This document shows, piece by piece, positions 6,157 through 63,618 of a stretch of 64,000 nt of DNA. Location: the NCBI GenBank assembly GCA_947629305.1, contig CANRDD010000001.1:6311-70310 (forward strand), read 5' to 3'. Source of the DNA: an uncultured Bacilli bacterium. Its GTDB lineage: Bacteria; Bacillota_I; Bacilli_A; RF39; UBA660. Positions within the stretch are counted from its first letter, which is position 1, and every line of letters starts with the position of its first letter. Under the pieces are notes generated by a model, which worked only from the letters and a program-made list of their open reading frames with translations, was not told where the DNA came from and made no database searches. The position numbers were made by a program, and so were the translations under genes.

Positions 6157-6250
6157 TTATAGCATGATATATTTTACTTGTAAACTAAAAAATTTCTTAT
6201 ATTAAAAAGAATACTATTATTTATTACTTAAATAGTATTCTTAATTATTA

Positions 6251-9200
6251 TTAATCTTTTTTTAAAGTTAATACTTTATTATCATCAGTTGCTATATCTA
6301 TCATAGTATCTAAAAAAACATTTATATTATCTTTATATATTAATAATACTTTTCTTGTTACATCTATTACTTCCGCGGGTTCTATATTTAAAAAGGATGA
6401 GATAGATTCCGTGGAAAAACATTTACCATCTATATATCCTAATTTTAAAGCAATAATAACCGCTTCTTTAACTGATAAAGTACTCATCATTTGCGTAAAT
6501 GATGGAGCTCTTAATAATTCTAATAATTTTAAAGAATCTTCTCTTGTCATCTCTATCTTTGTAAATTTTGATTCTATTTTAGGTTCTGTTTTAGATATTA
6601 AATCCCCATTTACTTGTTCTGTTTGAGACAATTCATTCTTAATCCTATTTTCTCTTTCCTTAGTTGAATTTTCTAATAACCTGCGCATTTTCGGTACTAA
6701 CGTATTATAAAACTTAGCACTTAATGTTCTATTTAATTTTGTTGAAACATGTTTATTTAAATCATCTCCATAACGAAGTCTTAATAATTCTTGATCATTT
6801 TCATTTAATTTGGTTAACATTTCATCTATTTGTTCTTTAGAATAATCTTCAAAATATTCATATATTGTTTTTATTGGTCCTTCTTTGGTAGGATTTTCTA
6901 ATAATCTGCGCATTCTTGGTACTAACATATTATAAAATTTATTACTTTGTTCTTTATTTAATTTGGTTGAAATAGGATTATTTAAATCATTACCATAACG
7001 AAGTTTTAATATTTCTTTTTCTTCTTCATTTAATTTGGTTAACATTTCATCTATTTGTTCTTTAGAATAATCTTCAAAATATTCATATATTGTTTTTATT
7101 GATCCTTCTTTAGTTGGATTTTCTAATAATCTTCGCATTCTTGGTAATAATGTACCATAAAATTTAATACTTTGTTCTTTATTTAATTCTGTTGAAATAG
7201 GCTTATTTAAATCATTACCATAACGAAGAGTCAACATTTCTTTTTCTTCTTCATTTAATTTGGTTAACATTTCATCTATTTGTTCTCTAGTATATGTTCC
7301 AAAATATTCATATATTGTCTTTATTTTTCGCACTTTTTCTTTTTTCCTTTCAACTATTTTTTCTTCATTTCCATTTATTTTTGATTCAGTTTCTATTCTT
7401 TTACTTTTATTTTTTCCTTTTCTTTCTTTTGTTGGATTCTTTAGTAATCGCTTCATTCGAGGAATTAATATATTATAAAATTTTATGCTTTGATCTTTAG
7501 TTAATTTTGTTGAAACAGGATTATTTAAATCTGCTCCATACCTAAGTCTTATTAATTCTTGATCTTCTTCATTTAATTTTAATATCACTTCATCTACTTC
7601 TTCTTTAGGATAGTCTTCAAAAAGTTCATATATTGTTTTTATTGTTCCTTCTCTAGTAGGATTTTCTAATAATCTTCGCATTCGAGAAATTAATAAACTA
7701 TAAAATTTTGTACTTTGGTCATTATTTAATTCTGTTAAAGCTGGATTATTTAAATCTTCTCCATAACGGAGCTTTAATATCTCTTTTTCTTCTTCATTTA
7801 ATCTTGTTATTACTTCATCTACTTGTTCTTTGGTATATGTTCCAAAATGTTCATATATTGTTTTTATTCTTCGAGGTTGTTCAGTTACATTCTCTTTCAT
7901 TTTTAAGCTATTTTCTTTTAAAGTAGCCCTTTTAGGATTATCTGTTTCTCTATAAATTGTTCTATATTTATCTATATTTTTTAAAGATAAATCGGGATAA
8001 GGTGTATATAAAGCTAAATCTTTAACATATTTTGACCATCTAATACGCATCAAAGCTGTGGCTTCAATTTGTTGGATTCTTTGTCTAGTTAAATGATATT
8101 TTTTACTTATTTCATTAAAAGTCATAGGTTTTTGATTATCAAACCCACATCGCATCTTTAATACTTCTATTTCCATTGGTTTCAAATTACAATTATCAAA
8201 TAAGTTTTGCACTATATCCGGCAAAGATTCATTTATAATTATTTCTTCAGGAGTCTCAGTTGAACTTGGTATTAAATTTTCTAACTCCGTGTCCTCTTCA
8301 TCATTAACAAAATTATTAATACTTACTGTATCAACTTGCAAATTAGATAATTCTGAAACAAATGAAACAGATAATCCCATTTCCTTAGCTATTTCATTTA
8401 TAGTTGGATTTCTACCTAATTTTTCTTCCAATTTAGTTATTGTTTTTTTATATAATGCTATCTTTTCATGCAAGTGCACGGGTATTCTTACATTTCGACC
8501 TTTATCCGCGATAGATCTAGTTATAGCTTGTCTTATCCACCATGTAGCATAGGTTGAAAATTTATAATTTTTATTTAAATCAAATCTATCTACCGCGGTC
8601 ATTAAACCAATGTTACCTTCTTGAACAAGATCTAAGAAAGAAAGGCCCCTTCCATAATATTTTCTAGCTATACTAATTACTAATCTTAAATTACTTTCAA
8701 TAAATAATTTTCTCGCATTATAATCACCTAGAGCCATTTTATTAAGAAGATCTTTTTCTTGTTCATCTGTGAGAAGTGGTCTTTTCCCAACTTCCCTAAA
8801 ATACATATCTGTGGCACTCATAACACCTAAATATTCTTCATCATAGGCATTTTCATTTACATTTTCTAATTCATTTATGTCAATATTATTTAACATACAA
8901 TATGTATCTATAATTGACTCTAATAAATTATCATTAAATTGTTCATCTACATTACCAGATTTTAATTGTTTATAATATTCTTTAAATACAACTATAATCA
9001 TTTTATTAAAAATACTATTTTCATTTATAAGTTTAATTAATAAATCTATACTTGGAACATAATTATAACTTTCTAAAAATCTACTTAATTTTTTAAAATT
9101 TTTGATTGCTCCTTCATAATTTTCTATTTTTATAAATTTTTGATTTATATAATTATTTAATAATATAAATGATTGATTTGCATCTAAAAGCATATTTTTA

Positions 9201-9433
9201 GTAATTTTAGCTATTTTAATTTTAATTTGTTTATTTATATATTCATTATAATTTGGTACACCTTTATATGTTTTTTTAGAAATATCAATTTCATTTAAAA
9301 CTAATTTTTCATAATCTTCCCTCGAAATATTTAAATACTTTGTCGATATATATATTTTATTAATAACAGGCATAATTATTTCATATATTTGTTTTGAATC
9401 TAATTCTTGAATATTATATAAATTTAATTCCAT
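6251..9433 (-). CDS. RpoD-family (group 1/2, SigA-like) sigma factor with unusual ~200-aa N-terminal domain and ~450-aa C-terminal extension of five tandem ~75-aa degenerate region-4-like repeats plus a terminal region-4-like domain
   Basis: Region 1.2 ([12 protein letters not shown]); region 2 ([17 protein letters not shown]...[19 protein letters not shown]); region 3; region 4.2 ([30 protein letters not shown]); then repeats [71 protein letters not shown] x5; C-terminal [45 protein letters not shown]. Confidence 0.85.
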
Positions 9434-9458
9434 TTATTTTCTCCTGTTCTAAAGATTA

Positions 9459-11006
9459 TTAATCTTTTTTTAAAGTTAATACTTTTTCTTTTCTTTTTTC
9501 TTCTGTAGCTATTTCTATTACATTATCTAAAAAACTATTTAATAATACTTTCTTTGTTATATCTATTACTTCTTCTGGTTCTATATTTAAAAAGGCCGAG
9601 ATAGATTTCGTGGAAAAACACCTGCCATCAATATACCCTAATCTTAAAGCTATAACTACGGCTTCTTTAACAGATAAAATCTTCATCAATTGAGCAAAGG
9701 ATGGTGCTTTTACTAAATCGATTAACTTCAAACAGTCTTCTTTAGTTATTTCAATATTATTAGTTTCTGATACTGTTTCTTTTTGCCCTAATTCTTCTTT
9801 AATTTCTAAAACTGGTTTCTTAACTTCTTTTTTAATTCTTTGTGTTCTTTTTCCTGTTGGATTTTCTAATAACTTCTTCATTCTTGGTACTAATACACTA
9901 TAAAATTTATTACTTTCTTCCTTAGTGAGTTTTGTTAAAACATGCTCATTTAAATCATCACCATACCTAAGTCTTATTAATTTCTTATCTTCTTCACTTA
10001 ATTTACTTAACATTTCATCTACTTGTTCTTTAGAATAATTATTAAAATGTTCATATATTGTTTTTAATTTTATTAAATTTGTATTTGGGTTTTTTAATAA
10101 TCTTTTCATTTTAGTTGCTAATAACCCATAGAATTTATAACTTTGTTCTTCTGTTAAATTGGTTGAAGATGAAATATTTAAATCTTCGCCAAAACGAAGT
10201 CTGATTAATTTCATCTCTTCTCCATTTAATTTTGTTAACATTTCATCTATTTGTTCTTTAGAATAATTTCCAAAATATTCATATATTGTATTAGCATTTC
10301 GTCTTTTTCTTTTGCCACTTTCAATTATATCTAATTCTATTATATCTTTATCCCTTAATTTTTCTCTTAATTCCTTAACTGTCTTGATAATTATTCGGGA
10401 AACATATGACTGAGAAATGTTTAACATCTCGGCAATTTCCTTTTGGTTATAAGTCCGATTATTATAAAAACCAAAATGAAGTTTAATGATTTTTTTACTT
10501 TTATCTGGTAATTCATTTATTAATTCTCTTAAAACTTGATAAAGATTAGATGTTTCATTATTATCTATATAATCACCTGCGAAGTCTTTACCATCACTAA
10601 GATAATCTTCCAACTTAATTTTACTACCATCACGATTTTGAAAAATAACTTTATCTAAACTTTCAATTTTCTTATCTTTATCTAATTTTCTTAAAAACAT
10701 TATTATTTCATTATCAATACATCTAGAAGCATAAGAAGAAAATCTAATATTTTTTGATATATCAAAAGTATCAACAGCTTTAAATAACCCTAAAATACCT
10801 ATAGATACTAATTCTTTTTTTTCATAATCAACTGTTTTAAATTTATTTGTTACTTCATATAAAACTAATCTAGTATTATGTTCTATTATTTTATTTCTTG
10901 CTTCATTATCACCATTTTGGGCTTGTTGAAGCAAATCACAAAATTCTTCATCAGATAATAATTTAGGTAATTTATGTCCATCTATAAATATTTCTTCTGT
11001 ACTCAT
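9459..11006 (-). CDS. SigE/SigK-family (sporulation-type, group 3) sigma factor paralog with C-terminal extension of two region-4-like repeats plus the same terminal domain as the upstream sigma
   Basis: LSDEEFCDLLQQAQNGDNEARNKIIEHNTRLVLYEVTNKF (region 2, SigK/E/G-like); YASRCIDNEIIMFLRKL; region 4 IIKLHFGFYNNRTYNQKEIAEMLNISQSYVSRII; then [22 protein letters not shown]...LIRLRFGEDLN repeats; C-terminus ~70% identical to that of the 1060-aa protein (both end VLTLKKD). Confidence 0.8.
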   Translation of the reverse strand: MSTEEIFIDGHKLPKLLSDEEFCDLLQQAQNGDNEARNKIIEHNTRLVLYEVTNKFKTVDYEKKELVSIGILGLFKAVDTFDISKNIRFSSYASRCIDNEIIMFLRKLDKDKKIESLDKVIFQNRDGSKIKLEDYLSDGKDFAGDYIDNNETSNLYQVLRELINELPDKSKKIIKLHFGFYNNRTYNQKEIAEMLNISQSYVSRIIIKTVKELREKLRDKDIIELDIIESGKRKRRNANTIYEYFGNYSKEQIDEMLTKLNGEEMKLIRLRFGEDLNISSSTNLTEEQSYKFYGLLATKMKRLLKNPNTNLIKLKTIYEHFNNYSKEQVDEMLSKLSEEDKKLIRLRYGDDLNEHVLTKLTKEESNKFYSVLVPRMKKLLENPTGKRTQRIKKEVKKPVLEIKEELGQKETVSETNNIEITKEDCLKLIDLVKAPSFAQLMKILSVKEAVVIALRLGYIDGRCFSTKSISAFLNIEPEEVIDITKKVLLNSFLDNVIEIATEEKRKEKVLTLKKD

Positions 11007-11038: not shown

Positions 11039-13684
11039 TTATTTCTTTTTTGGTAATAAAGATAAAACTAATTCCATATTATTATCATCTTTTCGATATT
11101 GATAAAATCTTTTATTTTTTCTTACTTCTTCTAATATTTTCTTTGTTTTTTCACTCTTATTTTTACTTTTTTCAACTGAATTTAAAAATATATCTCCTTT
11201 ATCATTAATTCCTTGCATATAAAATTCTCTTGCATAAATAAGTTTAATAATATTTGCCTCTTCTAAGGTTAAACCTAATTGCAGAGATGCTGTTTCAACA
11301 TCTAATCCTGATTCAATAATAAAGTCATTTATTTTTGGAAAATTAAAACCATAATAATTAACTAACTTATTATAATCAAAATCTTCTTCAAGCATTTTAA
11401 AGATAGGTTTTCGATCTTCTACATCTATTTCCCCTTTTAATGCCATGATAAGATCTTGATAATCATAAGGCAAATTTTCTTGTTTTGCTAAGCTATTGGC
11501 CACAGTTAAATATTCTATTGCTATTTTCTTTTGATATTTTTTCGTATAAGCAAAACCTAATTTAGCATAGACAATGGCTCGAGGACTTTTAAACATTTGT
11601 AGTAATTGTAAATATTTTTCTATGCATTCATTATAATTTCCTTCACTATAAGCTTTATTTCCTAAATTTATAAGTTCTTTACCATTAACATATCCTTGAA
11701 TTTTTGGTTTATATCTTAAAACTACTTGTTGTTCATTACCTTCACCAATTACAAAAGCAACCATATCCTTATAATTTTCCATCATATCCATTATTCTCTT
11801 AATTTTATTTTCAGGCATAGGATTTAATAAGATAATACTTTTTTTAACAAGTAATTCCGCATATTTTTTATCTATATATTTTTTTAAATTATCTTTTTCA
11901 GGAATCATTTCTTCTTTAGGTATTTCTGTTCTTTGTTCTTGAACTTGAATTTTTTCCTCTTGAGGTAACAAAACTTCTTCTTTTTCTTTCTTTGGTTCTT
12001 CTTTAATAGTAGGTTTTTGAATTCTAGTTCTTTCTTCTTTTTCTTTCTTTGGCTCTACTTTAGAAGCAAAATTTGGCAAACTAGCTCCATCCTTTTTTTG
12101 ATTATTTTCTAAAGCTATATTAAATATTTCTAATTCTTTATTATTTTGCTTATTATCTAACATTTTTTCTGATATTTCTAATATTTGATATAATCCATCT
12201 GTGATAACACAGTCTTGACCTAACTTATTACCTTTAGTAATTATATCTAAATAAACTCTTGCTTCAGCCAATTTATCTTGAGATAACTTAATATAAAATT
12301 CTTGAATATAGGTTGCTATATCAAAAGAATAATTATCTTTACTAACTAAAGTTAAGGCCATCATTGGTTTGGTAAAAGTAATATCTTTTTCTAATAAACT
12401 AATTTTAATTAAATCAATAATTAAAAATTCATAATCACTTTTATTTAAACTATTTAAATAAGTTCTTAAGAATTTTAAAGAATTTTCTAAATCACCTTTC
12501 ATTAAATATGTAATAATATTTGCCAAAGAAGGATCAGCCTTTTTTATTGTTGGTTCAGCTTCCTTAACCTTATTTTCTTTAACTGGATTATTTTCGAAAA
12601 TAGGCTTAGTTTTTTCCCTTAATTCTTGATTAGAATTATTTTCCAAGTTATTAATTGAACTTGTTTTTTGTTCCTTTTTAGCACTTTTTCTTATATTATT
12701 ACAACTATTAACTATTTCGACAAGTAACAAATAAATTGAATCATCATTACTAACCTTAAATTTAGCATTCTTTTTCTTAATTAAATCTAAAGCTAATTCA
12801 TAATTTTGGCCATCAATTGCATTAAAAAAATCATTAGTATTATATTCTTGAATTTCAGGAATAATTTTTGTTTTATTAATATTTAATAAATCTTTTGTTA
12901 AAATATAAACATAACTTTCGGAAATACTTAAACGATGCGAAGCTTCTCTTTTTTTATAAAAATCTATTATATCTTGATATTGTTTTTGTTTAATTAAATT
13001 TATGATTTCCTTTCGATTTTTATTTTGAACATCAAGGGCTTGGATAAGTAAATTCTTAATTAATAAATCTTGAACTTTAATAGATCCTTTATCTCGAATT
13101 AATTCATTTAATTGAAGAAGAGCTAATGAAAATCTTTGATTAAGAGCTGACAACCTCATTTTATTTTGCTTAGGTATATTCTCATATCTTTTATCATTAT
13201 AATCGACTCTAATATCATCATATTCTAAATATTTAGCATATTCTTGATATTTTTCAGGAATATCCGTGATCATATTTAATAAGTATAAATAATAATTACA
13301 ATCTATATTATAAAATTCATTTTCACTATCTTGAAAAATATCATAATAGACAAAAGCTTTCTTGTAATCTTTCTCATTAATACATTTTAAAAATAAACGA
13401 AAAGCTACCCCTTTGTGGCGTGGATCTAATTCAAAACATTTTTGAAAACATAAATCAGCTTTAGCATATTCTTTTTGAGCAATTAAAGTCTTTCCATAAT
13501 AAAATAAGTCATCTACTGATTTTAAAGAATATAAACCTCTTCTAACTCTTATAATTTTTTCTTGATCAATTAAATCTTTTAAATCTTTAGAATTAAAACC
13601 AAGACTATTTAATTCTTTAGTTGTTAATTCTTTTTCTTCTAAAACATTATTATATAATTTAGTTAAACTTTCTTCATTAATCAT
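11039..13684 (-). CDS. Large TPR-repeat protein with N-terminal AbiEi-like winged-helix DNA-binding domain
   Basis: N-terminus LTTKELNSLGFNSKDLKDLIDQEKIIRVRRGLYSL matches AbiEi_4-type wHTH signature (...RxRRGxY); multiple TPR-like helical repeats (e.g. YYGKTLIAQKEYAKADLCFQKCFELDP, LGNKAYSEGNYNECIEKYLQLLQM); Lys/Glu-rich linker; 4-bp overlap with upstream gene. Confidence 0.55.
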   Translation of the reverse strand: MINEESLTKLYNNVLEEKELTTKELNSLGFNSKDLKDLIDQEKIIRVRRGLYSLKSVDDLFYYGKTLIAQKEYAKADLCFQKCFELDPRHKGVAFRLFLKCINEKDYKKAFVYYDIFQDSENEFYNIDCNYYLYLLNMITDIPEKYQEYAKYLEYDDIRVDYNDKRYENIPKQNKMRLSALNQRFSLALLQLNELIRDKGSIKVQDLLIKNLLIQALDVQNKNRKEIINLIKQKQYQDIIDFYKKREASHRLSISESYVYILTKDLLNINKTKIIPEIQEYNTNDFFNAIDGQNYELALDLIKKKNAKFKVSNDDSIYLLLVEIVNSCNNIRKSAKKEQKTSSINNLENNSNQELREKTKPIFENNPVKENKVKEAEPTIKKADPSLANIITYLMKGDLENSLKFLRTYLNSLNKSDYEFLIIDLIKISLLEKDITFTKPMMALTLVSKDNYSFDIATYIQEFYIKLSQDKLAEARVYLDIITKGNKLGQDCVITDGLYQILEISEKMLDNKQNNKELEIFNIALENNQKKDGASLPNFASKVEPKKEKEERTRIQKPTIKEEPKKEKEEVLLPQEEKIQVQEQRTEIPKEEMIPEKDNLKKYIDKKYAELLVKKSIILLNPMPENKIKRIMDMMENYKDMVAFVIGEGNEQQVVLRYKPKIQGYVNGKELINLGNKAYSEGNYNECIEKYLQLLQMFKSPRAIVYAKLGFAYTKKYQKKIAIEYLTVANSLAKQENLPYDYQDLIMALKGEIDVEDRKPIFKMLEEDFDYNKLVNYYGFNFPKINDFIIESGLDVETASLQLGLTLEEANIIKLIYAREFYMQGINDKGDIFLNSVEKSKNKSEKTKKILEEVRKNKRFYQYRKDDNNMELVLSLLPKKK

Positions 13685-14682
13685 TTCTTTATTCCTCCCT
13701 TTAACCTTTTTAATTTTATTTGTTCATTTTTGGAAAAACCTTCTTTATCAAATTCATTTGATAAAGATACAGGATACATGGTAATAATATCTTTTGTTCC
13801 AAGCATCGTAACTACACATAAATCATTTGTAATTGTCTCATTTTTATAACCAATTGGTGTATCTAATCTAAATCGGTACATATCTGATACTTCAAAATGA
13901 TTTGCATTCATATTTTCAATTATTACTCTTGCATCTAATAATAATTTCTTTAAATCAAGATATTTAAAGAAACAACCATTGGTATTCTTTTCTTCTTGGT
14001 TTTGATGTTTTGCTATATGGAATAATAATAATTCTTCACTATGATCATATAATCTATATATCATATAATCTTTTTCTTTATCATAATTATTATCTAATAA
14101 CTTTAATTTTCCTAAATAATATTTTATATAATTATTTAAAATATCATAATGTTGTGTTAACTTTGGAGTTAAAGAAGACCTATCAATTTTCATAATATAT
14201 TGTTCAGCTTGATAAAAATCTTTTTCAAGTATTTTTAAACAAATTAAGCCTTTAGTTGCTTGAATATAAAACTTAGGATTTAATTGCAAAGTTTGATACA
14301 TTCTCTCAGCAATAGAATAATCACCAGTTTGCACATTAAGTTTAGCTAAAGCCATAAGAGCTTTATATTGTAATTCTGGGGAAGTCATACATTCCCTATA
14401 ATATTTTTTACTTTGTTCAAAATTATTTTCAATATTTTCTAATAAGCCATATAATAATTTAAATATAGGTTTATCTTGATCAGGATTATTATTTAATATT
14501 TCTCTAGCTTTTGCATATTTACCTTCTCTAAGTTCAATTTGAATAAGTTTTGTTAAAGACTGAACTCTAAAACCATCATGTTGATAAGATATATTAAACC
14601 AATATCTAGCATTTATATAATCATTAGTATTATAATATTCTAATCCTTTAAAAAAGGCTTCTTTTAAATCTTTATTTGTCAT
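13681..14682 (-). CDS. TPR-repeat protein (Rap/RRNPP-like size, 333 aa)
   Basis: Repeated TPR-like helices (FFKGLEYYNTNDYINARYWF, KALMALAKLNVQTGDYSIAERMYQ); translationally coupled (4-bp overlaps) on both sides. Confidence 0.5.
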   Translation of the reverse strand: MTNKDLKEAFFKGLEYYNTNDYINARYWFNISYQHDGFRVQSLTKLIQIELREGKYAKAREILNNNPDQDKPIFKLLYGLLENIENNFEQSKKYYRECMTSPELQYKALMALAKLNVQTGDYSIAERMYQTLQLNPKFYIQATKGLICLKILEKDFYQAEQYIMKIDRSSLTPKLTQHYDILNNYIKYYLGKLKLLDNNYDKEKDYMIYRLYDHSEELLLFHIAKHQNQEEKNTNGCFFKYLDLKKLLLDARVIIENMNANHFEVSDMYRFRLDTPIGYKNETITNDLCVVTMLGTKDIITMYPVSLSNEFDKEGFSKNEQIKLKRLKGGIKK

Positions 14683-15680
14683 CTTTTTAAAACCCGACTT
14701 AAATTTTCATAATATCCTTGATCATTAACTGAGGATAAATCCTGTACTTTTCCTTGATAATCATTTAAACAAAGACCATCAGGTGTAAAATAACATATTT
14801 GACAACATTTCATATCCGGATAAATTTTTAAAGGCATTGTTGTTTTAAGACCTAAATGCCAGTATCCTTTGTAGCCAGTGGAACCTAAGCCAGCTGAACA
14901 ATGGACATGTTCACCAAGTCTTCCTAAAGAACTTCGGCCATTTAAAACTGGGATTAAATTATAAGTTTCTGTCCATTCATTAGTTCTAGCCATATATATT
15001 TCATCAGGATATAAATAAAAACCATTGTCATTAATTTCTACTTCTTCAATAGGATTATTCTTTTTTAAATCTAAAACATTATCCCTAAAAAAAGCTATTC
15101 TTTTATTTAAAGTTAAATTAACAGAATTAGGATTAATAACAATATTATCTTTATTGGAAATAATAATATCTCCTTGTTCCATTCTCTTCATTATTTCTTT
15201 CCCACTTAACATACCTATATCTAAAGAATTATCTAAACTTCTAAAAAAAGCTAAATTACCTATTTCCATATTAGGATAAATATAAATAGGTTTAGTACAA
15301 GTAATACATAATAATAAATAATCATTAAAATGATCATCTTTATATTCATTATTAAGACTAATACTAATTCCAAGTAATGATAATGATACTTTGCCATTTA
15401 GAAAAGGAACAAAACCATTGGTTTTAACTTTTTGTTCTGTTTGGGCTAAATAAACTTTACCAGGTTCTAATAAAAAACCAGATTTAGGTATTTTTTCTTC
15501 TTTTAAACCATGGGTATAACCATTTTTAGTATCGACTAAATAATCATCTTCTTGATAATAAAGAGTATCACCTAAATTAAGACGACAACTATTAGGTTTA
15601 TCTAAAGAATTATCTTTTAAATTAGTTATTTCAATATGACCTAAAGCCATTTGTTTTTTTATTTCTTCATTTGTTAACAT
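14679..15680 (-). CDS. Tandem two-domain dCTP deaminase/dUTPase-fold protein (Dcd-Dcd fusion) with degenerate catalytic residues
   Basis: Both halves start with a Dcd N-terminal signature (LTNEEIKKQMALGHIEI...; LSGKEIMKRMEQGDIII...). Second half retains GRSSLGRLG (Ser/Ser/Arg motif) but has HLGL where the catalytic VLEF Glu is expected. First half lacks both motifs. Confidence 0.6.
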   Translation of the reverse strand: MLTNEEIKKQMALGHIEITNLKDNSLDKPNSCRLNLGDTLYYQEDDYLVDTKNGYTHGLKEEKIPKSGFLLEPGKVYLAQTEQKVKTNGFVPFLNGKVSLSLLGISISLNNEYKDDHFNDYLLLCITCTKPIYIYPNMEIGNLAFFRSLDNSLDIGMLSGKEIMKRMEQGDIIISNKDNIVINPNSVNLTLNKRIAFFRDNVLDLKKNNPIEEVEINDNGFYLYPDEIYMARTNEWTETYNLIPVLNGRSSLGRLGEHVHCSAGLGSTGYKGYWHLGLKTTMPLKIYPDMKCCQICYFTPDGLCLNDYQGKVQDLSSVNDQGYYENLSRVLKR

Positions 15681-15681
15681 A

Positions 15682-16218
15682 TTACTTTCTTCTTTCTAAT
15701 TTAGGAACATATTCTCTTTCAATCCGTGATTCTGTGGCTTTAACTTGTCCTAAATATTTACCCTTATATTCAATAGAATTATCCCCGATTAAAGGAAAAT
15801 AATATAAACGGCCGATAGGCATATTAGGATAAACTTTGGTTGGATAAGTGCAAACAATTTCAAGTGTCCATGTTCCTTCAAAACCATGATCACCAAATCC
15901 CGCGGTTACATGAATTTCCATGCCAAGAGCAGCTAGCTTATCAATACCACCTAGTAAAGGAACAAAATTATAAGTTTTAGTATATTCATTGGTTCTCCCT
16001 AAATATAATTTACCTGGCTCTAAAACTAAACCTTCTTCAGGAATAAGAATTTTTTGGGTAGGATTACTTTTCTTAATATCTAAAAAGGGTTCAGTATATA
16101 CTTTTAAATCATTAGCAAGTGTTACATTAAGATAATTTTCTCCTAACGTATCTTCATTTACTTTATAAATATCGATATTATGAGGATAATTAGCTATTAT
16201 TTCATTTCTACTTAACAT
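15682..16218 (-). CDS. dcd: dCTP deaminase (single dUTPase-fold domain)
   Basis: IHVTAGFGDHGFEGTWTLEIVCTYPTKVYPNMPIGRLYYF matches the Dcd core including the catalytic Glu (TLEI); the SSxR motif is replaced (GGIDKLAALG); 178 aa. Confidence 0.65.
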   Translation of the reverse strand: MLSRNEIIANYPHNIDIYKVNEDTLGENYLNVTLANDLKVYTEPFLDIKKSNPTQKILIPEEGLVLEPGKLYLGRTNEYTKTYNFVPLLGGIDKLAALGMEIHVTAGFGDHGFEGTWTLEIVCTYPTKVYPNMPIGRLYYFPLIGDNSIEYKGKYLGQVKATESRIEREYVPKLERRK

Positions 16219-16232
16219 AATTATTACTTCCT

Positions 16233-17420
16233 TTAAATCTTTCTGGTTAAAGATATACCTTCTTTAAATTTACATTCAGATGGACAAGTAAAATTAGGAA
16301 ATGTACAACGAGATCCATGCGAATATTTAACTAATTCCGCATATATTTTTTGATCATTAGGGCTTTTTGATGCCTTTAAAGTATTAACATATTTTGTTAA
16401 TACTTCTTTTGTAATTTGCATAACTTCTAACTGAGGTGCTGTACAAATTCTTTCAAATAATTTTAAAATAAAATCTTCATATTTACCTGTTTCATTAACA
16501 TTTACGAGTAACCCTTGAGGATAATCCGATAAACTTGATATATCTTTTAACCATTCTTGGGATAAATAATCATTATCTCTAATAATAATTGGTACATAAT
16601 ATTCTTTTGTTTCTTTTAATGATAAAGAATAATCTAAAGTTCTATGTCTTAATAAATCGGCTAAAGCAACAAATGTCGCATCATAATTGACTGAGTAACT
16701 CCGGCTAAAGTGATCATCATAAGTATTATCATCTTGAATTAAAGAAAAATGTCTATTACGATAATCTTTAATATCTTGATCAATAAAACCTGTACTTAAT
16801 AAAGCCTTTTGAAACTCTTTTAAATAAGGCTTTAATTCTTGAATTAAAGGATTATTTGTATCTTCATTTAACATTTTAATTGTAAAATCATAAATATAAT
16901 TTAATTGTCTAAATGATGTTGTATATTTTAATTTAGTTCGCATAAATACTGACAACAAATAACGGGCATTTTCTTTAGCTTTTTTATCTATCATAGCTGG
17001 AGTTAAATAAACATTATCAGGATAAACCTTAGTTATTTCTTCTTTAAATATTTTATGCCATTTACGATATAATTCATTTTCTTCTTCTGTTCCAAACATT
17101 GTTGTATAACGTCCTGATTTTTCCGAAGTATTATATTCATGTTCATTATTAATCATCATCGCTAATAACTTGGGAATATTTTCAAAATATATTTGAATTG
17201 TATCATGCCCAAAGACCGAATGATGTCTATTTTTTTTATTACCATCTGCCCTATTTAACGTTTTTTCAATTGGTTCTTTTAATATTTCATCATAATTTTT
17301 AGCCGTATAACAAATATTTGCTGAATGTCCCCCGTTGATTTCTAAATCTTTTAAACTAGTTTCCTTGATTATTTCTTCATCTGTTGTAGTTATACCTACT
17401 ACTTTTGCATTTATTTCCAT
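16233..17420 (-). CDS. ThyX-like (flavin-dependent thymidylate synthase family) divergent paralog. RHR motif not conserved. Extra ~170-aa C-terminal region
   Basis: Alignable to the ThyX core: HHSVFGHD (cf. GHETPFEH) ... NNEHEYNTSEKSGRY (cf. FRHRIASYNELSGRY). SGRY is conserved but RHR reads NEH. Likely start MEINAKVVG at 17420 with GGAGG RBS; longer ORF to 17492 is possible. Confidence 0.5.
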   Translation of the reverse strand: MEINAKVVGITTTDEEIIKETSLKDLEINGGHSANICYTAKNYDEILKEPIEKTLNRADGNKKNRHHSVFGHDTIQIYFENIPKLLAMMINNEHEYNTSEKSGRYTTMFGTEEENELYRKWHKIFKEEITKVYPDNVYLTPAMIDKKAKENARYLLSVFMRTKLKYTTSFRQLNYIYDFTIKMLNEDTNNPLIQELKPYLKEFQKALLSTGFIDQDIKDYRNRHFSLIQDDNTYDDHFSRSYSVNYDATFVALADLLRHRTLDYSLSLKETKEYYVPIIIRDNDYLSQEWLKDISSLSDYPQGLLVNVNETGKYEDFILKLFERICTAPQLEVMQITKEVLTKYVNTLKASKSPNDQKIYAELVKYSHGSRCTFPNFTCPSECKFKEGISLTRKI

Positions 17421-17546
17421 TATTCCTCCCATAGCCCCCTTTTTAGTTCTAAATCTACTTAAAATTTTATCAAATATATCACTAAAAATCAATTCCCTTA
17501 GGAATTTTTTTCCAAAACTATTCCATAATAAAAAAGGTGATATCTT

Positions 17547-30136: not shown

Positions 30137-31510
30137 GTGAGGTTTAACTTGAAGACAAGCACTCAAGAGTTATTCAACAAATTTTTAACAGAAATAGCAA
30201 GTAAAGTATCACAAAATGCTTATGTTATTTGGTTTTCGCAACTTGAACCTCTATCGATAAATAATGATGTATTTACGATAAAAGTCCCAATGGAAGTTCA
30301 TAAACAAATCTTAAGTGAAACTTATCATGATACAATAGATGCCATCTTTTTTTCCTTAACAGGAATAAATTATACCTTTAAATATGTAACAGAAGAGGAA
30401 ATAGAAGTTACGCCAGAAGTAACTTTGCCTGAATTACCTCAGGTAAAAAAAGAAGAAGAATGGGATACTCATTTAAAAAAAGAATATACTTTTGATAACT
30501 ATGTGGTTGGTAACTCCAATAGATTAGCTTTTATTGCCGCTAGGGCGGTAGCGGAGGCTCCAGGCACAATTCATAATCCTTTGTTTATCTATGGACGAAG
30601 TGGTCTTGGCAAAACCCATTTGATGCATGCCATTGGTAATTACATTACGGAAAATAGTAATAAAAAAGTTTTATATACAACAAGTAATGAATATCGAAAT
30701 GACTTCACGGGTATTGCTTCCATTAACAATGGTGTTAGTAAAATGAATTATGCTAACGAGTTTAAAAATAAATACCGAAATGTGGATGTTTTAATTATTG
30801 ATGATATTCAGTTTTTAACTGATGCAGAGAAAACCCAACAAGAATTTTTTCATACCTTTAATGAACTTCATCAAGCTAATAAACAGATAATTATTAGTAG
30901 TGATCGAAGTCCTGATGATTTAAAGAAAATAGAGGAAAGACTTAGAAGTCGTTTTATGTGGGGATTACCTGTGGATATTTATCCACCTGATTTTAATCTA
31001 AGATGTGATATTATAAGAGCAAAAATTAAAAATACAAGTATTGAAAATAAATTAAATTCTGATGTTATTGAATATATTGCTAATTCTTGTGTTAATGATG
31101 TTAGGCATATTGAAGGAACTATTAGAAGATTACTTGCTTATACAGCCATGATGGTTCCCGATAAAATAACTTTAGACTTTGCCATTGAAGCATTAAAAGA
31201 TTATGTTAATACCAATATATATATCAACAATTCGATAGCTTCAATTCAAAATGCTGTGGCCGAATATTTCAAAATATCAGTAGAAGATTTAAAAGGGAAA
31301 AGAAGAACAAATAATGTTGTTAGACCAAGGCATATTGCTATGTATTTATGCCGAGTGGAAACTGATGAACCTCTTATTAAAATAGGGCTTGAGTTTGGAG
31401 GAAGAGATCATTCCACTGTATCAACAGCGATAGATAAAATAAAAGAAGAATTAGAGACTGATGATAACTTGAATAAAATGTTGAAAGAAATAAAACATAA
31501 GTTACAATAA
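30137..31510 (+). CDS. dnaA: Chromosomal replication initiator protein DnaA
   Basis: AAA+ Walker A GRSGLGKTHL; Walker B VLIIDDIQF; C-terminal DNA-binding domain (HSTV...); GTG start at 30137 or TTG at 30149. Confidence 0.95.
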   Translation: MRFNLKTSTQELFNKFLTEIASKVSQNAYVIWFSQLEPLSINNDVFTIKVPMEVHKQILSETYHDTIDAIFFSLTGINYTFKYVTEEEIEVTPEVTLPELPQVKKEEEWDTHLKKEYTFDNYVVGNSNRLAFIAARAVAEAPGTIHNPLFIYGRSGLGKTHLMHAIGNYITENSNKKVLYTTSNEYRNDFTGIASINNGVSKMNYANEFKNKYRNVDVLIIDDIQFLTDAEKTQQEFFHTFNELHQANKQIIISSDRSPDDLKKIEERLRSRFMWGLPVDIYPPDFNLRCDIIRAKIKNTSIENKLNSDVIEYIANSCVNDVRHIEGTIRRLLAYTAMMVPDKITLDFAIEALKDYVNTNIYINNSIASIQNAVAEYFKISVEDLKGKRRTNNVVRPRHIAMYLCRVETDEPLIKIGLEFGGRDHSTVSTAIDKIKEELETDDNLNKMLKEIKHKLQ

Positions 31511-57772: not shown

Positions 57773-58789
57773 ATGGATTATGAAAAAATAGCTAATTTTA
57801 TCCAAAGTAACCGAAGGAAAATGGGGTTAACCCAAGAAGAACTCGCGGATTTAATTCCCATTGGCCGTGGTGCAGTCAGTAAATGGGAAAGAGCTATAAC
57901 TATCCCAGATCCTTTAGTTTTATTAAAATTAAGTGAAATATTTAATGTTAGTATTAATGAAATATTATTAGGTGAAAAAATAAATAATCATAATAAAGAA
58001 GAACTTAATAAAATAACACTAAGTCTTTTTAATAGTATTAATAATAGTAAAAAAAGAATTAAAATATTATTAATAAGTATCTTAATTATCTTATTTTTAT
58101 TTTTTAGTTATTATTTTTTTAATTCTTATAAACAAGTTAAAATATATACAATTAATACAAATAACGATTATTTTAAAATAGAAGATGCGTTATTTATTTA
58201 TACAAGAAATAAAAGTTATTTTAAAATAGGTAAATTACATATTAATAATAATTCTGTCATTATGACTAATGTTGGTATTTATTATAAAGATCAAGATCAA
58301 AAAGAACATTTATTATTTAGTATAAATGGGGATGAAGATATCGTTTATGTTGATTTAAATAATAAAATATTTAAGAAAAAAAATTTAAAACAAATATTAA
58401 ATAATATGTATATAAGATTAATTTATAATGAAGTATTAGAAAAATCATTTAAATTATATTTAGAAGAAGATTATATTAATAAAGAATTATTTAATAAAGT
58501 TAATAATCAAAATATAGAATTTAAAGATTTATTTTTAATGAATAAAGAATATTATATAAATTATATTAAAACTAAATTATATCAAAATAAAAATAATTGT
58601 TTTTATCAAGATCAAGATTTTAAATTTAATTATTTAAATAATTATATTGAATTAATAAATAAGGAAGAAAAATGGCAATATGATGTAATAAATAATAAGT
58701 TATTATTAGAAAAGAATAATAAAATAAAAGAATGTTCTAATAATTGTTCTAATTATTTTTATATAAAATTAGAAGAAGCTTTAACTTAA
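57773..58789 (+). CDS. Membrane-anchored XRE-family HTH regulator (HTH_3 N-domain, single TM, large C-terminal domain)
   Basis: MDYEKIANFIQSNRRKMGLTQEELADLIPIGRGAVSKWERA; TM KILLISILIILFLFFSYYFF; start ATG 57773 with GGTGA RBS (ORF extends upstream to 57740). Confidence 0.65.
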   Translation: MDYEKIANFIQSNRRKMGLTQEELADLIPIGRGAVSKWERAITIPDPLVLLKLSEIFNVSINEILLGEKINNHNKEELNKITLSLFNSINNSKKRIKILLISILIILFLFFSYYFFNSYKQVKIYTINTNNDYFKIEDALFIYTRNKSYFKIGKLHINNNSVIMTNVGIYYKDQDQKEHLLFSINGDEDIVYVDLNNKIFKKKNLKQILNNMYIRLIYNEVLEKSFKLYLEEDYINKELFNKVNNQNIEFKDLFLMNKEYYINYIKTKLYQNKNNCFYQDQDFKFNYLNNYIELINKEEKWQYDVINNKLLLEKNNKIKECSNNCSNYFYIKLEEALT

Positions 58790-58860
58790 GATGAGCTTAT
58801 AAAGTCCTTTCTTTTTTTAATATTAAAGATTAATCTAAAGTTAGGAAAGGAGGGATATAT

Positions 58861-59718
58861 TTGAAAAAAGGAATTATTATTACCATTATTATTTTAATTA
58901 TAAGTATTTCAATAGGTTATATTTTCTTAAAGAAAAAAGATTATAATCCAGGTTATACTGTTTATGAAAAGAAAGCTAGTATAGTTAAAGATGATGGTTG
59001 GTATTATTATTTTTATTTAAATGGCGTAAAAGAAAATAATCAAGGAGAAGTAAAAGATATTAATTATTTCTTTGATGCTATTAATTTAAAATATGAAACT
59101 TTACCTGAATATGGTTATATGGATGAAACAATTAATGAAAATGATGAAAAGGTTAAAATATTTAGACCAAGTTATCCATCTTTAAGTAATTCTTTAAAAG
59201 AAAAAGATGGTATTAAAGAAAGTGAAGAAATATTAATGATAGATAATTATTTTGATCAAAAGAATTTTACCCATTCTATTACTATTAATGATCTAAGTGA
59301 TTTAAAAGTTTATAATTTTGATAAAGAATTAATTGTGGAATTATTTAATAAAATGATTGAAAAAGAATATTCTTCTCATATAACACATTTTACTGTTTAT
59401 CAGGGTGAATATAGGCATGATGAAGAAAAAGATGGGTATATGTGGCATACAAGTGTCTTACCATTTCGAACAGGTTTAGATGCTGTTTATATTGATATTA
59501 TTTATCATAATCAAACTTATTTATCAGATTTAATTAAAGAAAATAAAGCTAATGCTAAACAAAGAGAAATATATGAAAATATAGAAAAAATAGAAAAATA
59601 TATTATTAGTAATCAAACCGTGGAATTAGAAGATACTTTTAAAGAATTAAGTAATAATAAAGATTACCAAAGATTATTTAAAATATTAGCTACATATGAT
59701 GATGGATGGATAGACTAA
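58861..59718 (+). CDS. Hypothetical membrane-anchored protein
   Basis: TTG start with AAGGAGGG RBS; N-terminal TM IIITIIILIISISIGYIF; no recognisable domain. Confidence 0.45.
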   Translation: MKKGIIITIIILIISISIGYIFLKKKDYNPGYTVYEKKASIVKDDGWYYYFYLNGVKENNQGEVKDINYFFDAINLKYETLPEYGYMDETINENDEKVKIFRPSYPSLSNSLKEKDGIKESEEILMIDNYFDQKNFTHSITINDLSDLKVYNFDKELIVELFNKMIEKEYSSHITHFTVYQGEYRHDEEKDGYMWHTSVLPFRTGLDAVYIDIIYHNQTYLSDLIKENKANAKQREIYENIEKIEKYIISNQTVELEDTFKELSNNKDYQRLFKILATYDDGWID

Positions 59719-59759
59719 AGAAAATAACTATGTTATAATTTAGTCAAGGTGGTAAAGAA

Positions 59760-60725
59760 ATGAATAAAGTTTTAAAAATAGTTCTTATATCGATAAGTGT
59801 TATTGTTTTAGTTATTGCTCTTGATACAATTGGCGCAAAAGTTTTTAATCATAGTCCTATTATAAGTATTAGAAAAAATATAGATGGAGGAACAACTGAT
59901 TATCTTAAATCAGGCCTATTTGTTAATTATTATCATTGTGTTAATGGCGAAGAAAAAACCGTTTATAAAAAGACTAAATATTCTTGTCCATTGGAAGAAA
60001 AAGCTGATTCATCTTTAGATAATATCTATCGTAATTCTTTGCTAGAATATGATATTCACAAACTATCAAATGATTATACTTTTAATGATGCTAAAGATGA
60101 TAATTATTTAGCTATTGGTCATGATAATATTTATAATGAAAATAATATTAATATTTTCTTAGAAAATTATCAAAAACAAAAAGATGCTTTTTTAAGAATA
60201 GCTAATGTAACAATTGAAGGAGATTTAATTCTAACTGATTTAATTTATAATTCTCAAGAAGATTTAATTTATGTTGTAATTGATAATACCAGAGATACTT
60301 TTAGTAAAGGAGAAATATCTTTTAAAACATATCAAAATCTTAAAGTAAATGATACAAACTGGGTTTTAACTAATGATAATGATAGTTATACAATTGATTC
60401 TCTTTATAAAAATATAGCTTGTTATAAAGAACAAGTTGGTGCTTATGTTACAAGTGAAAAAATAGTTCCTGAAGAAATAAGTATTGAAAAATTAGTTAAA
60501 GATGATTTAAAAAATATTAAATATTCTTATGGTTTAAAAAATTCATTAGGACATATAGCTTTAATTGTTAATTCTCCTAATAAAGCAACAATGAAAGAAA
60601 TAGAAGAAGTTTTAAATAAAAAATATAGTGATTTAAAAAAAGTAGAATTAAATGATAATTTTTATATATATGTTTTTAATGGAGATTCTAAGTTAGATTT
60701 AAGTAATTTGAATAATGCTTGTTAG
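59760..60725 (+). CDS. Hypothetical secreted/membrane-anchored protein
   Basis: N-terminal TM/signal KIVLISISVIVLVIAL; no recognisable domain. Confidence 0.45.
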   Translation: MNKVLKIVLISISVIVLVIALDTIGAKVFNHSPIISIRKNIDGGTTDYLKSGLFVNYYHCVNGEEKTVYKKTKYSCPLEEKADSSLDNIYRNSLLEYDIHKLSNDYTFNDAKDDNYLAIGHDNIYNENNINIFLENYQKQKDAFLRIANVTIEGDLILTDLIYNSQEDLIYVVIDNTRDTFSKGEISFKTYQNLKVNDTNWVLTNDNDSYTIDSLYKNIACYKEQVGAYVTSEKIVPEEISIEKLVKDDLKNIKYSYGLKNSLGHIALIVNSPNKATMKEIEEVLNKKYSDLKKVELNDNFYIYVFNGDSKLDLSNLNNAC

Positions 60726-60760
60726 AAAAATGCAAACTATAAAAGGTTTGCATTTTTAAG
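60726..60760 (+). terminator. Rho-independent terminator
   Basis: aaAAATGCAAACtataaaagGTTTGCATTTTT: 10-bp stem, 8-nt loop, T-run. Confidence 0.65.
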
Positions 60761-60857
60761 ACTTAGCAACTAAATAGAGACAAAAAACAACTTAAAAGTG
60801 GTAGAATGCAACCAGTAGAAAGTTATAAAATATGGGCAAGAAAGAAGGAATAATATT

Positions 60858-62306
60858 GTGAATAATCAATTCGCGGAGAATTTAAAAAAAATAAGAAAGG
60901 ATCATCATTTATCCCAAGAAGATCTTGCTAGTGAACTTAATGTTTCAAGACAAGCTATATCCAAATGGGAATCATCTTTAGCTTATCCTGAGATGGATAA
61001 AATTATTGCTTTATGTGATAAATTTAATTTAAATATTGATGATTTATTACATCATGATATAAATGAAATAAAAAAAGAAGAAGAGGGAAAGAAGAAAGTA
61101 AATAAATTTATTGATGATTTTTTAAATTTTATTACTGATACTGTTAATTTATTTAGTAATATGGATTTTAAAAGAAAAATTAAATGTTTAATAGAACAAA
61201 TAATTATTATTACATTATTAATTATTTGTTCTAATATTATCGTTTATTTTAGTGATTATATCTTTAATAATATATTTAGTTTTTTACCTCATTTTAAAAT
61301 AAGTTTATTTATGTCTAGTTTATTTAATATAATCTCTATTATAATATGTGTTATATTTTCTCTTATTATCTTTATTCATGTCTTTAAAACAAGATATTTA
61401 GATTATTATAATAAGTATAAAAAAGAAATTAATTTAAATAATAATACTAATAAAGTAGTATTTAAAGATAAAGAAGAAAATATTATTATTAGAGATCCTA
61501 AACATAGTGAATATCGTTTTATTAATGGTTTATTAAAATTCTTTATATTTCTTATAAAATTATTTTCTTTAATGATAGCTATATTTATTAGTTTTATAAT
61601 TATTCTTTTATTTATTTGTTTAATAGTATCTTTTTTACTATATAAAACTAAGTTATTTTTTCTAGGTTTAATATTAGCTATTATATCTTCTATTGTTTTA
61701 ATAACTATTATCTTTTTACTAATATTAAATTTTATTTTTAATAGAGAAAATGATAAAAAGAAAATGATTTGGAGTATTATCTTTTCTCTTGGTTTATTTG
61801 GCATTGGCTTAGGTTTTATATTTGTTGGTTCTTTAAATTTTGAAATGTTAAGTAATCCTAAAGAATTATATAGAACTAAAACAAGTGAATATGTAATGCA
61901 AGATGATTTATTTCTTTTAATAGGAAATGTTAATTATATTGAAAAAGATATTCCTAATATTGAAATAACATATGAGTATAATAAATATTATGATTTAATT
62001 GAATATAAGGATAAAGGAATAGATGTCTGGTTAGAATTAAATAATCCTTTTCCATTAATAAAAGAAGTTATTAAATATTTAAATAATAATAAAGTAATCA
62101 ATTTTACAAATAATATAACAATTAATGTTTATGCTTCAAAAGAAAATATTGCTATCTTAAAAAATAATTGGAATAGATATATTAATAATTTAGATGAAAT
62201 AGGAATAATGCAAGAAAATTATGAGAATAGGATTCAAGAATTAGAAGAACTTAATTATATATATCAAGAACAATTAGAAGAATATCGAGAATTATTAGAT
62301 AGATAA
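60858..62306 (+). CDS. Membrane-anchored XRE-family HTH regulator with multi-TM region and C-terminal coiled-coil
   Basis: LKKIRKDHHLSQEDLASELNVSRQAISKWESS; at least 5 hydrophobic helices; GTG start with AGAAGGAA RBS. Confidence 0.65.
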   Translation: MNNQFAENLKKIRKDHHLSQEDLASELNVSRQAISKWESSLAYPEMDKIIALCDKFNLNIDDLLHHDINEIKKEEEGKKKVNKFIDDFLNFITDTVNLFSNMDFKRKIKCLIEQIIIITLLIICSNIIVYFSDYIFNNIFSFLPHFKISLFMSSLFNIISIIICVIFSLIIFIHVFKTRYLDYYNKYKKEINLNNNTNKVVFKDKEENIIIRDPKHSEYRFINGLLKFFIFLIKLFSLMIAIFISFIIILLFICLIVSFLLYKTKLFFLGLILAIISSIVLITIIFLLILNFIFNRENDKKKMIWSIIFSLGLFGIGLGFIFVGSLNFEMLSNPKELYRTKTSEYVMQDDLFLLIGNVNYIEKDIPNIEITYEYNKYYDLIEYKDKGIDVWLELNNPFPLIKEVIKYLNNNKVINFTNNITINVYASKENIAILKNNWNRYINNLDEIGIMQENYENRIQELEELNYIYQEQLEEYRELLDR

Positions 62307-62362
62307 ACTATAGTGAAAAATTTTACTAAATATATAAAAATATTTCAGTATAATTATGCTAG

Positions 62363-63562: not shown

Positions 63563-63585
63563 AGACAAATTAGTCTTTTTTTTCT
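63562..63585 (+). terminator. Possible rho-independent terminator
   Basis: AAGACaaattaGTCTT followed by TTTTTTTT; short stem. Confidence 0.35.
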
Positions 63586-63618
63586 TATTTAAGAATAAAA
63601 TTTTTTAGGTGATTATTA

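Follow-up and report, generated by a model that had tools for sequence, protein, structure and literature searches.

Two adjacent alternative sigma factors of an uncultured Bacilli bacterium are extended by the same C-terminal module related to sigma region 4

Sigma factors with built-in regulatory extensions are, to our knowledge, known almost only from the extracytoplasmic function (ECF) group. In ECF41 (SnoaL-like), ECF42 (tetratricopeptide repeat, TPR) and ECF238 (Cys-rich), a C-terminal domain that modulates activity replaces the anti-sigma factor or is added to it, and the TPR extension of ECF42 is thought to bind another protein (PMC8999054). A related principle is the sigma mimicry of the PhyR-NepR system (PMC4551977), in which PhyR is a separate response regulator combining a full sigma-2/sigma-4-like domain with a receiver domain (PMC4551977, PMC4814048). 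Here we describe a window of 64,000 nucleotides from an uncultured Bacilli bacterium (contig CANRDD010000001.1, positions 6,311 to 70,310) that encodes two back-to-back alternative sigma-70-family factors, a 515-aa SigE/K-like protein and a 1060-aa RpoD-like protein, both extended by the same C-terminal module. The module consists of repeats with a period of 225 nt, two copies in the smaller gene and five in the larger one, and a terminal domain (coordinates of all features are collected in Table 1).

Similar to the ECF proteins, these are sigma factors with an added C-terminal domain, and the TPR theme of ECF42 returns behind the module in two related loci (L049 and L042) and in proteins encoded next door in the window. 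The hosts, however, do not belong to group 4: one is a group-3 SigE/K-like protein and the other is RpoD-like with regions 1.2-4. Nor is the extension a ligand-binding fold; it is a tandem array of degenerate region 4 units, variable in number and present on two sigma classes. Unlike PhyR, it contains region 4 only, is carried in cis by active-looking sigma factors, and comes without a receiver domain and without a known anti-sigma factor. The module would work most like PhyR-NepR mimicry and the ECF extensions while being a member of neither (PMC4551977). What is new here is that two non-ECF sigma classes have a common extension made from their own promoter-recognition domain.

The 1060-aa open reading frame (ORF) is the next one downstream of the 515-aa ORF on the same strand, separated by 25 nt, and both proteins end in KVLTLKKD. 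A previous reading of the window, made from the sequence only, had claimed that the two proteins have the same repeats and terminal domain, and that the 3' ends of their genes are about 80% identical. ORF translation and a hidden Markov model of the repeat (REP HMM) agree on the first claim, and pairwise alignment bore out the second. With low-complexity filtering switched off in blastn and blastp, the 3' 840 nt of the 515-aa gene matched the 3' end of the 1060-aa gene with 74% identity over 866 nt (E=6e-160), and the proteins matched with 51% identity over 363 aa (E=3e-103). Over the last 240 nt the genes are 79% identical, and the 3' part of the 515-aa gene also matches internal repeats of the 1060-aa gene in blastn. 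The codon alignment of the two terminal domains showed 78% identity, ranging from 63% to 90% in 30-nt windows, and the ratio of nonsynonymous to synonymous divergence (dN/dS) between the two module copies is ~0.28 (dS 0.64, dN 0.18). An AT-rich low-complexity artefact, the doubt that the sequence-only reading itself had raised, fails against these scores and this ratio; the similarity is homologous sequence. The shared 30 nt that had been described as lying downstream of the genes do form an exact two-fold match, but one that is mostly coding, comprising 23 coding nt (the last 7.7 codons), the stop codon and 4 nt beyond. The sequences past it are unrelated between the two genes, and since the similarity stops directly after the match, it is not a shared downstream element.

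Profile comparisons point to sigma region 4 as the origin of the module. A terminal-domain profile built from 36 sequences found region 4 of Thermotoga maritima RpoD (1tty) as its best PDB match (E=5e-6, 65 residues), followed by Thermus aquaticus sigma-4 structures, and aligned to the family's own region 4 in hhalign with a probability of 97% (E=1e-10), where A-type (RpoD-like) and B-type (SigE/K-like) region 4 could not be told apart as the source. The repeat profile matched region 4.1 in the PDB (E ~0.006), and REP aligned to the family's own region 4 with a probability of 94% (E=9e-8), the alignment extending through the first helix of the helix-turn-helix (HTH). An AlphaFold2 model of the 515-aa protein, for which 72 orthologs were used, resembles beads on a string (predicted TM-score, pTM, 0.30), with a predicted local distance difference test (pLDDT) of 85-95 for sigma-2, sigma-4 and the repeats, 58-91 for the terminal domain, and disordered linkers. 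The repeats (pLDDT 85-94) are modelled as a short helix, two helices and one long 20-aa helix, the HTH-equivalent part being a single 20-residue helix. The terminal domain is modelled with the four helices of the sigma-4/LuxR-type tetrahelical HTH fold, and when the full-length model served as query in a fold search, all matches were whole sigma factors.

The basic recognition helix of sigma region 4 contains R584, E585, R586, R588 and Q589 (E. coli numbering). Where sigma-70 has T-R-E-R-I-R-Q, the terminal-domain family has E-x-x-E-V-I-E, so that the consensus at the five positions is x, x, E, I, E with no conserved Arg; Glu, Val, Ile and Glu occupy the -35-reading positions in 50-75 of the 79 terminal domains. 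By sequence, the terminal domain does not qualify as a -35-binding domain. The 79 domains are acidic (mean net charge -4, pI 4.9), the repeats are mildly basic (mean pI ~8), and the linkers are rich in Lys and Arg, with a charge of +6 for a 31-aa linker of the 1060-aa protein and, among orthologs of the 515-aa protein, differences in both length and sequence of the linker at aa 388-418. Neither the repeats nor the terminal domain seem to keep the features needed for -35 reading. By profile and fold, both parts of the module are region 4 duplicates that have diverged, a point that the sequence-only reading had missed, and the architecture is a sigma core, n degenerate sigma-4 units and one acidic domain of sigma-4 fold. 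Literature searches found no paper on the module, and it is covered by no Pfam, NCBIfam, PADLOC or PHROG model.

An exhaustive search of 1.84 billion cluster representatives with the module profile returned 1015 proteins at E<=1e-10 and 456 at E<=1e-30, some of them 1400-1700 aa long with 10-18 matched stretches. Scanning one genome per GTDB species gave 79 loci with the module. Judged from the record titles of the metagenome-assembled genomes (MAGs), nearly all of these come from uncultured Bacilli, Tenericutes or Erysipelotrichaceae, and a minority have other bin labels (Clostridia, Clostridium sp., Firmicutes and one Methanobrevibacter bin). Named carriers include Ca. Scybalousia, Ca. Faecisoma (Mycoplasmatota incertae sedis according to NCBI) and Clostridium sp. 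CAG:433, and the sources include rabbit, human, ruminant and chicken guts. An ORF and HMM census of the loci counted ~49 A-like (RpoD-like) carriers, typically of 720-790 aa, and ~19 B-like (SigE/K-like) carriers of 445-515 aa, both usually with one repeat; several repeats are found in the window, L048, L036/L066 and L053. More than 120 B-like orthologs carry the module at E<1e-104, and the sole name given to them in any source is 'sigma-70 family RNA polymerase sigma factor'.

The module also occurs outside sigma factors. The sequence-only reading had proposed a search for the isolated terminal domain, and true free-standing module ORFs were found in L069, L070 and L079; a further apparent stand-alone module, in L004, belongs to an A-like gene that is frameshifted or truncated. 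Fusions of the module to TPR repeats are found in L049 (1196 aa) and L042. A phage or mobile origin was rejected, as the scan of viral contigs found no module relatives and PHROGs gave generic sigma families only. The module is spread across the whole clade of uncultured gut Bacilli/Mycoplasmatota-like bacteria, is under purifying selection and can exist as a separate protein. The sigma factors that carry it represent a real, conserved and so far unnamed architecture with one to more than ten copies of the domain in the extension and ~1000 clusters, none of which has a name or a Pfam or NCBIfam model of its own. The family merits a domain model that could replace the bare sigma-70 annotation.

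From the presence of one C-terminal module on two sigma classes, the sequence-only reading had derived domain shuffling or gene conversion. The ~80% DNA identity is not in itself evidence of conversion, because terminal-domain DNA of other species is 74-77% identical to that of the window and codon usage is AT-biased; the figure mostly reflects protein conservation and AT-biased codons. Exchange as such is supported by the comparison of core and module phylogenies that this reading had proposed. In a neighbour-joining tree, A-type and B-type terminal domains were fully intermixed; permutation of the type labels gave a between- minus within-type distance of -0.02 (p=0.95) for the terminal domains, and the repeats likewise showed no sigma-type signal (p=0.71), the modules grouping by lineage instead. 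The window's two terminal domains were sisters in 160/200 bootstraps (200 replicates, p-distances). The B-type module of L007 grouped with the A-type modules of L028/L015 in 184/200, and the A-like core of L071, from the same MAG as L007, is closest to L028/L015; the B-type module of L003 grouped with A-type L008/L005/L004 in 192/200. The codon alignment further revealed derived states common to the window copies and absent from the 10 related loci compared, of both types, namely the codons TCC-ACG for TCA-ACA and ATC, and the residues Asn for Gly in FL(N)IE, Asp for Glu, Ala for Ser in IIAL and Ala for Thr in R(A)P.

Since the module trees follow the lineage rather than the host gene, and since the window copies share derived codons, the data indicate concerted evolution, with repeated exchange between the two sigma genes within lineages. 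Ancient independent fusions without exchange are ruled out by the permutation, the bootstraps and the shared derived codons. The exchange was not recent, given the dS of ~0.64 and a longest identical run between the window copies that is not significant (p=0.13); together with the 74-77% identity to other species, these values leave a recent gene conversion unsupported. Repeat expansions are lineage-specific: each of the five repeats of the 1060-aa protein has its nearest relatives among the other four, and the repeats of L036 and L048 behave likewise.

Both Sigma70_r2 and Sigma70_r4 match the core of the 515-aa protein over their Pfam gathering scores, which makes it a member of the sigma-70 family. 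In NCBIfam, SigK (183 bits) and SigE (171 bits) match best, both under the curated equivalog cut-offs (SigK: NF004471, 182.8 bits against 252, and TIGR02846, 171.5 against 298.65; SigE: NF006158, 170.9 against 339, and TIGR02835, 166.3 against 348.6), and the best PDB match is sigma-K (8vjl). It is not an ECF protein, with Sigma70_ECF scoring 19.2 bits, below the cut-off of 21.1, and group-3 and group-1 models matching the core best. SigE and SigK are made with an N-terminal pro-sequence that is cleaved by SpoIIGA or SpoIVFB. In the NCBIfam alignments, model position 19-33 pairs with query residue 7-10 and ~20 N-terminal model residues are missing; as the alignments thus begin at the position of the mature protein, the 515-aa protein has no pro-sequence. 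It has the N-terminal 'G..LP.PLS.EE' segment and region 2 of SigE and SigK, but differs from them in lacking the cleavable pro-sequence and in having a 290-aa C-terminal module never described for either. Because it misses the curated cut-offs and has no pro-sequence, the protein is by these criteria a SigE/K-related paralog and not SigE or SigK itself. The sporulation-type core assigned to it earlier is thus sound as a relationship, but not as an identity. A link of the module sigma factors to sporulation is possible, since relatives' genomes carry SpoIIM, SpoIIID and CotE, and the related uncultured orders are a mix of spore-formers and non-spore-formers (PMC10868615). The exact 515-aa protein (P0040) is present in both NCBI and ENA assemblies, and another four 515-aa proteins of its 90% identity cluster lie on other ENA contigs. 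In another locus (L001:13621-21130), a B-like sigma factor (P0016) is located upstream of two WXG100 genes and an FHA/FtsK-SpoIIIE (EssC-like) gene; this position beside a type VII secretion locus could be a hint at its regulon or a coincidence.

The 1060-aa protein matches all of Pfam regions 1.2, 2, 3 and 4, with no Pfam match to region 1.1, and begins with a 205-aa domain that has no Pfam or PDB match. It stays below the cut-offs for RpoD (RpoD_Cterm 303 bits against 354, PRK09210 293 against 572) and for the defence protein MzaA (NF041931, 291 bits against 800). A defence-system reading was rejected: PADLOC matches only the generic sigma part (MzaA) and AbiEi, and no other defence model matches among the neighbours of the sigma genes. 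A canonical 363-aa SigA with regions 1.1-4 is encoded in related genomes (L021:417-1508, L034:7283-8359), and what had been counted as a second A-like gene in L034 is this SigA. As SigA is separate in these relatives, the 1060-aa protein is unlikely to be the housekeeping sigma factor and is probably an extra RpoD paralog with its own N-terminal domain. The earlier claim that two different sigma classes acquired one module holds with this correction to the identity of the second one. Sequence resembling the N-terminal domain was also seen, by eye and unscored, in ORFs without a sigma core (L079:10626-12404, L068:10584-11300), one of which also has a repeat and the terminal domain.

Only the NCBI contig contains the complete 1060-aa protein, whose repeat number rests on one short-read assembly. 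The 225-nt repeats are 75-88% identical, and a public 285-aa fragment (P0002, ENA) runs from the beginning of repeat 3 directly into the end of repeat 4; the repeats evidently collapse in short-read assemblies, and the count of five is therefore provisional. Other RpoD-like carriers vary in further ways. In L077:4672-10396, three tandem paralogs have the terminal domain only, a repeat only, and two repeats with the terminal domain, respectively. A CAG:433-like Clostridium sp. lineage has the module on a sigma factor with a normal region 1.1 (P0022; also P0026 and P0034). In L002 (9378-11386) the corresponding gene is split into two ORFs, and P0022 apparently lacks regions 3-4, which may be genuine variation or the product of an assembly error or a frameshift.

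As to function, we tentatively favour, without granting it quite an even chance, that the module is a non-DNA-binding sigma-4 mimic, a protein-docking or regulatory appendage common to both sigma factors. It would no longer read DNA but dock a protein, and one lineage-specific partner could control or recruit both alternative sigma factors through it. The shared partner suggested by the sequence-only reading is plausible in this light. Such a partner would normally recognise region 4, and may be an anti-sigma-type regulator, an activator or the RNA polymerase flap. Region 4 is a known hotspot for regulators, and among the closest PDB entries many show sigma-4 bound to WhiB1, phage ORF67 or an anti-sigma factor. 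The variable number of repeats might tune valency or reach, and gene conversion would keep both sigma factors compatible with the same partner. Because of the TPR fusions and a recurrent adjacency to module sigma genes, the best available partner candidates are the presumably co-operonic TPR proteins encoded upstream of the 515-aa gene, TPR333 and TPR881. Homologs of one or both flank module sigma genes in four other loci, in varying order: both in L007 and L033, where they lie beside B-like sigma factors, and TPR333 alone in L004 and L018. A possible model, by analogy only, for how TPR333 or TPR881 could engage the terminal domain is the binding and blocking of the four-helix LuxR/sigma-4-type domain of ComA by TPR proteins of the Rap family (PMC3246441).

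Several points weigh against a docking role. The partner is a candidate at most, and the TPR cassette had no sigma neighbour in 4/4 long contigs sampled from the TPR333 side (L083-L086), so that an obligate TPR partner is weakened and the TPR-sigma link is facultative at best. Besides the window, one same-genome A/B pair is available, L007/L071, and L071 has no terminal domain. Gene conversion alone, without selection for a common partner, can produce concerted evolution. The AlphaFold2 model shows no confident packing between the domains of the 515-aa protein. Basic residues of region 4.1 that contact the DNA backbone are partly kept (K in LSxKE, K/R in LKLGY), and since the repeats and linkers are mildly basic, their non-specific contact with nucleic acid stays conceivable.

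Should the module indeed be a sigma-4 mimic, it would represent a novel link between sigma activity and a partner, and would also offer a clear example of two regulators being kept compatible by concerted evolution. For the uncultured RFN20/RF39-type gut lineages, which are known from gene inventories only (PMC10868615), the finding has implications for gene regulation and possibly for sporulation control. A bolder form of the idea, which we consider rather doubtful, is that degenerate region 4 arrays are an unrecognised regulatory device, 'cis sigma-4 mimicry', carried by group-1-like and group-3 sigma factors across an entire clade of gut bacteria and acting as a multivalent decoy or docking platform for region-4-targeting proteins. 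Its targets might be an anti-sigma factor or an activator, the flap of the polymerase, or even sigma-4 inhibitors encoded by phages; two otherwise unrelated regulons would come under one lineage-specific switch, with gene conversion keeping the arrays interchangeable.

The module may instead be an additional nucleic-acid-binding arm that contacts RNA, or DNA upstream of the -35 element in the manner of an on-board reader of UP elements like the C-terminal domain of the alpha subunit, extending promoter specificity or strength for both sigma factors. The fold is that of a DNA-binding domain, the repeats and linkers have the basic character noted above, and a variable repeat number is to be expected of an array that adjusts reach. 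We nevertheless regard such an arm as unlikely: the terminal domain is acidic and its -35-reading positions are altered in most members, the repeats are modelled without a helix-turn-helix, and stand-alone and TPR-fused forms suit a protein-interaction role better.

Improbable in our judgement, too, is a purely cis-acting, autoinhibitory extension, in which the acidic sigma-4 look-alike folds onto sigma-2/sigma-4 or blocks core binding until it is released by a signal or by proteolysis in the disordered linkers, thereby taking the place of the SigE/K pro-sequence. Acidic region 1.1 has a similar role in primary sigma factors. The missing pro-sequence of the SigE/K-like 515-aa protein and the protease-accessible, disordered basic linkers between core, repeats and terminal domain would fit this idea, and ECF41-type extensions do inhibit in cis (PMC8999054). 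Yet AlphaFold2 predicted no docking of the module on the core, the RpoD-like paralog, which never had a pro-sequence, carries the same module, some module proteins are free-standing, and as many as 10-18 matched stretches in a single protein do not sit well with simple masking. A trivial origin from AT-rich low complexity, an assembly chimera or neutral, selfish repeat expansion is scarcely credible, and with regard to whether the module exists it is already refuted: the genome has 24-25% GC and the collapsed P0002 shows that the repeats of the 1060-aa gene could be mis-assembled, but the filter-off DNA and protein matches, the recurrence of the 515-aa protein in two sources and of its cluster members on other ENA contigs, the ~1000 clusters, the low dN/dS and the confidently predicted fold of the repeats all oppose it.

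Table 1. Positions in the window of the two sigma genes, their domains and the adjacent features
Feature	Position	Strand	Basis or remark
515-aa SigE/K-like alternative sigma factor with C-terminal module (B-like)	9459..11006	-	ORF, Pfam, NCBIfam
Sigma core of 515-aa protein	10341..11006 (aa 1-222)	-	Pfam, NCBIfam; AlphaFold2 pLDDT 80-95 in both domains
Sigma-2 of 515-aa protein	10680-10886 (aa 41-109)	-	Sigma70_r2, 41.1 bits (cut-off 24)
Sigma-4 of 515-aa protein	10362-10520 (aa 163-215)	-	Sigma70_r4, 68.5 bits (cut-off 24.1)
Repeat 1 of 515-aa protein	10074..10298 (aa 237-311)	-	Degenerate unit, by all signs sigma-4-derived; REP HMM, hhalign, AlphaFold2
Repeat 2 of 515-aa protein	9846..10070 (aa 313-387)	-	As repeat 1
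Lys-rich linker of 515-aa protein, predicted disordered	9753..9845 (aa 388-418, 31 aa)	-	pLDDT <50
Terminal domain of 515-aa protein, ~90 aa	9492..9752 (aa 419-505)	-	Acidic, sigma-4 fold with extra C-terminal helix
1060-aa RpoD-like protein, probable paralog, with C-terminal module (A-like)	6251..9433	-	ORF, Pfam, NCBIfam, REP HMM
N-terminal domain of 1060-aa protein, 205 aa	8819-9433	-	Conserved in 47 loci
Core regions 1.2-4 of 1060-aa protein	8006-8818	-	Pfam r1.2, r2, r3 and r4, all over cut-off
Repeats 1-2 of 1060-aa protein	7421-7870	-	REP HMM
Repeats 3-5 of 1060-aa protein	6653-7327	-	REP HMM; Lys-rich linker separates them from repeats 1-2
Terminal domain of 1060-aa protein	6275-6565	-	Profile match
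Exact 30-nt match	6247-6276 and 9455-9484	-	Occurs exactly twice; 0 expected in shuffles
TPR881, 881 aa, AbiEi_4-like winged-HTH N-terminus and TPR repeats	11039..13684	-	32 nt upstream of 515-aa gene
TPR333, 333-aa TPR protein	13681..14682	-	Overlaps TPR881 gene by 4 nt
AT-rich 12-bp hairpin and U-run after 1060-aa gene	6204..6242	-	dG -10.7 kcal/mol, z=-2.4; terminator-like
Strong near-consensus extended -10 promoter-like site, TTTACA-17-TGnTATAAT	6184-6156	-	Before orf121/argS

The window has 23-27% GC over most of its length and includes a chromosomal origin, with dnaA at 30137-31510 and the switch in GC skew near 30 kb. The two sigma genes end a minus-strand string made up of a ThyX-like gene, two dCTP-deaminase-like genes, TPR333, TPR881, the 515-aa sigma gene and the 1060-aa sigma gene, with 4-nt overlaps or spacings of 25-32 nt; the hairpin that closes the TPR-sigma string had been missed by a G+C-based terminator scan. 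A and B genes are adjacent in the window only, and no conserved synteny was found around the sigma genes, the top neighbour families occurring in <=7 of ~68 loci. TPR333 and TPR881 make up a cassette of two genes that is conserved (133 clusters at E<=1e-10) and is found at variable genomic positions, often beside integrase or resolvase genes.

Three unusual nucleotide-metabolism paralogs (14679-17492, minus strand) are located directly upstream of TPR333 and overlap it by 4 nt. They comprise a 419-aa Thy1/ThyX-like protein (46.7 bits in Pfam, under the NCBIfam thyX cut-off), a 178-aa dCTP-deaminase-like protein and a 333-aa protein with a DCD_N-like N-terminus and a DCD domain; none has a PADLOC match. 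At the far end of the window, positions 58000-64000 drop to 19-20% GC (~26% elsewhere) and encode a 482-aa HTH_3 protein, an AAA_14/DUF4143 ATPase and a DUF4362 protein, a stretch that is probably an accessory island.

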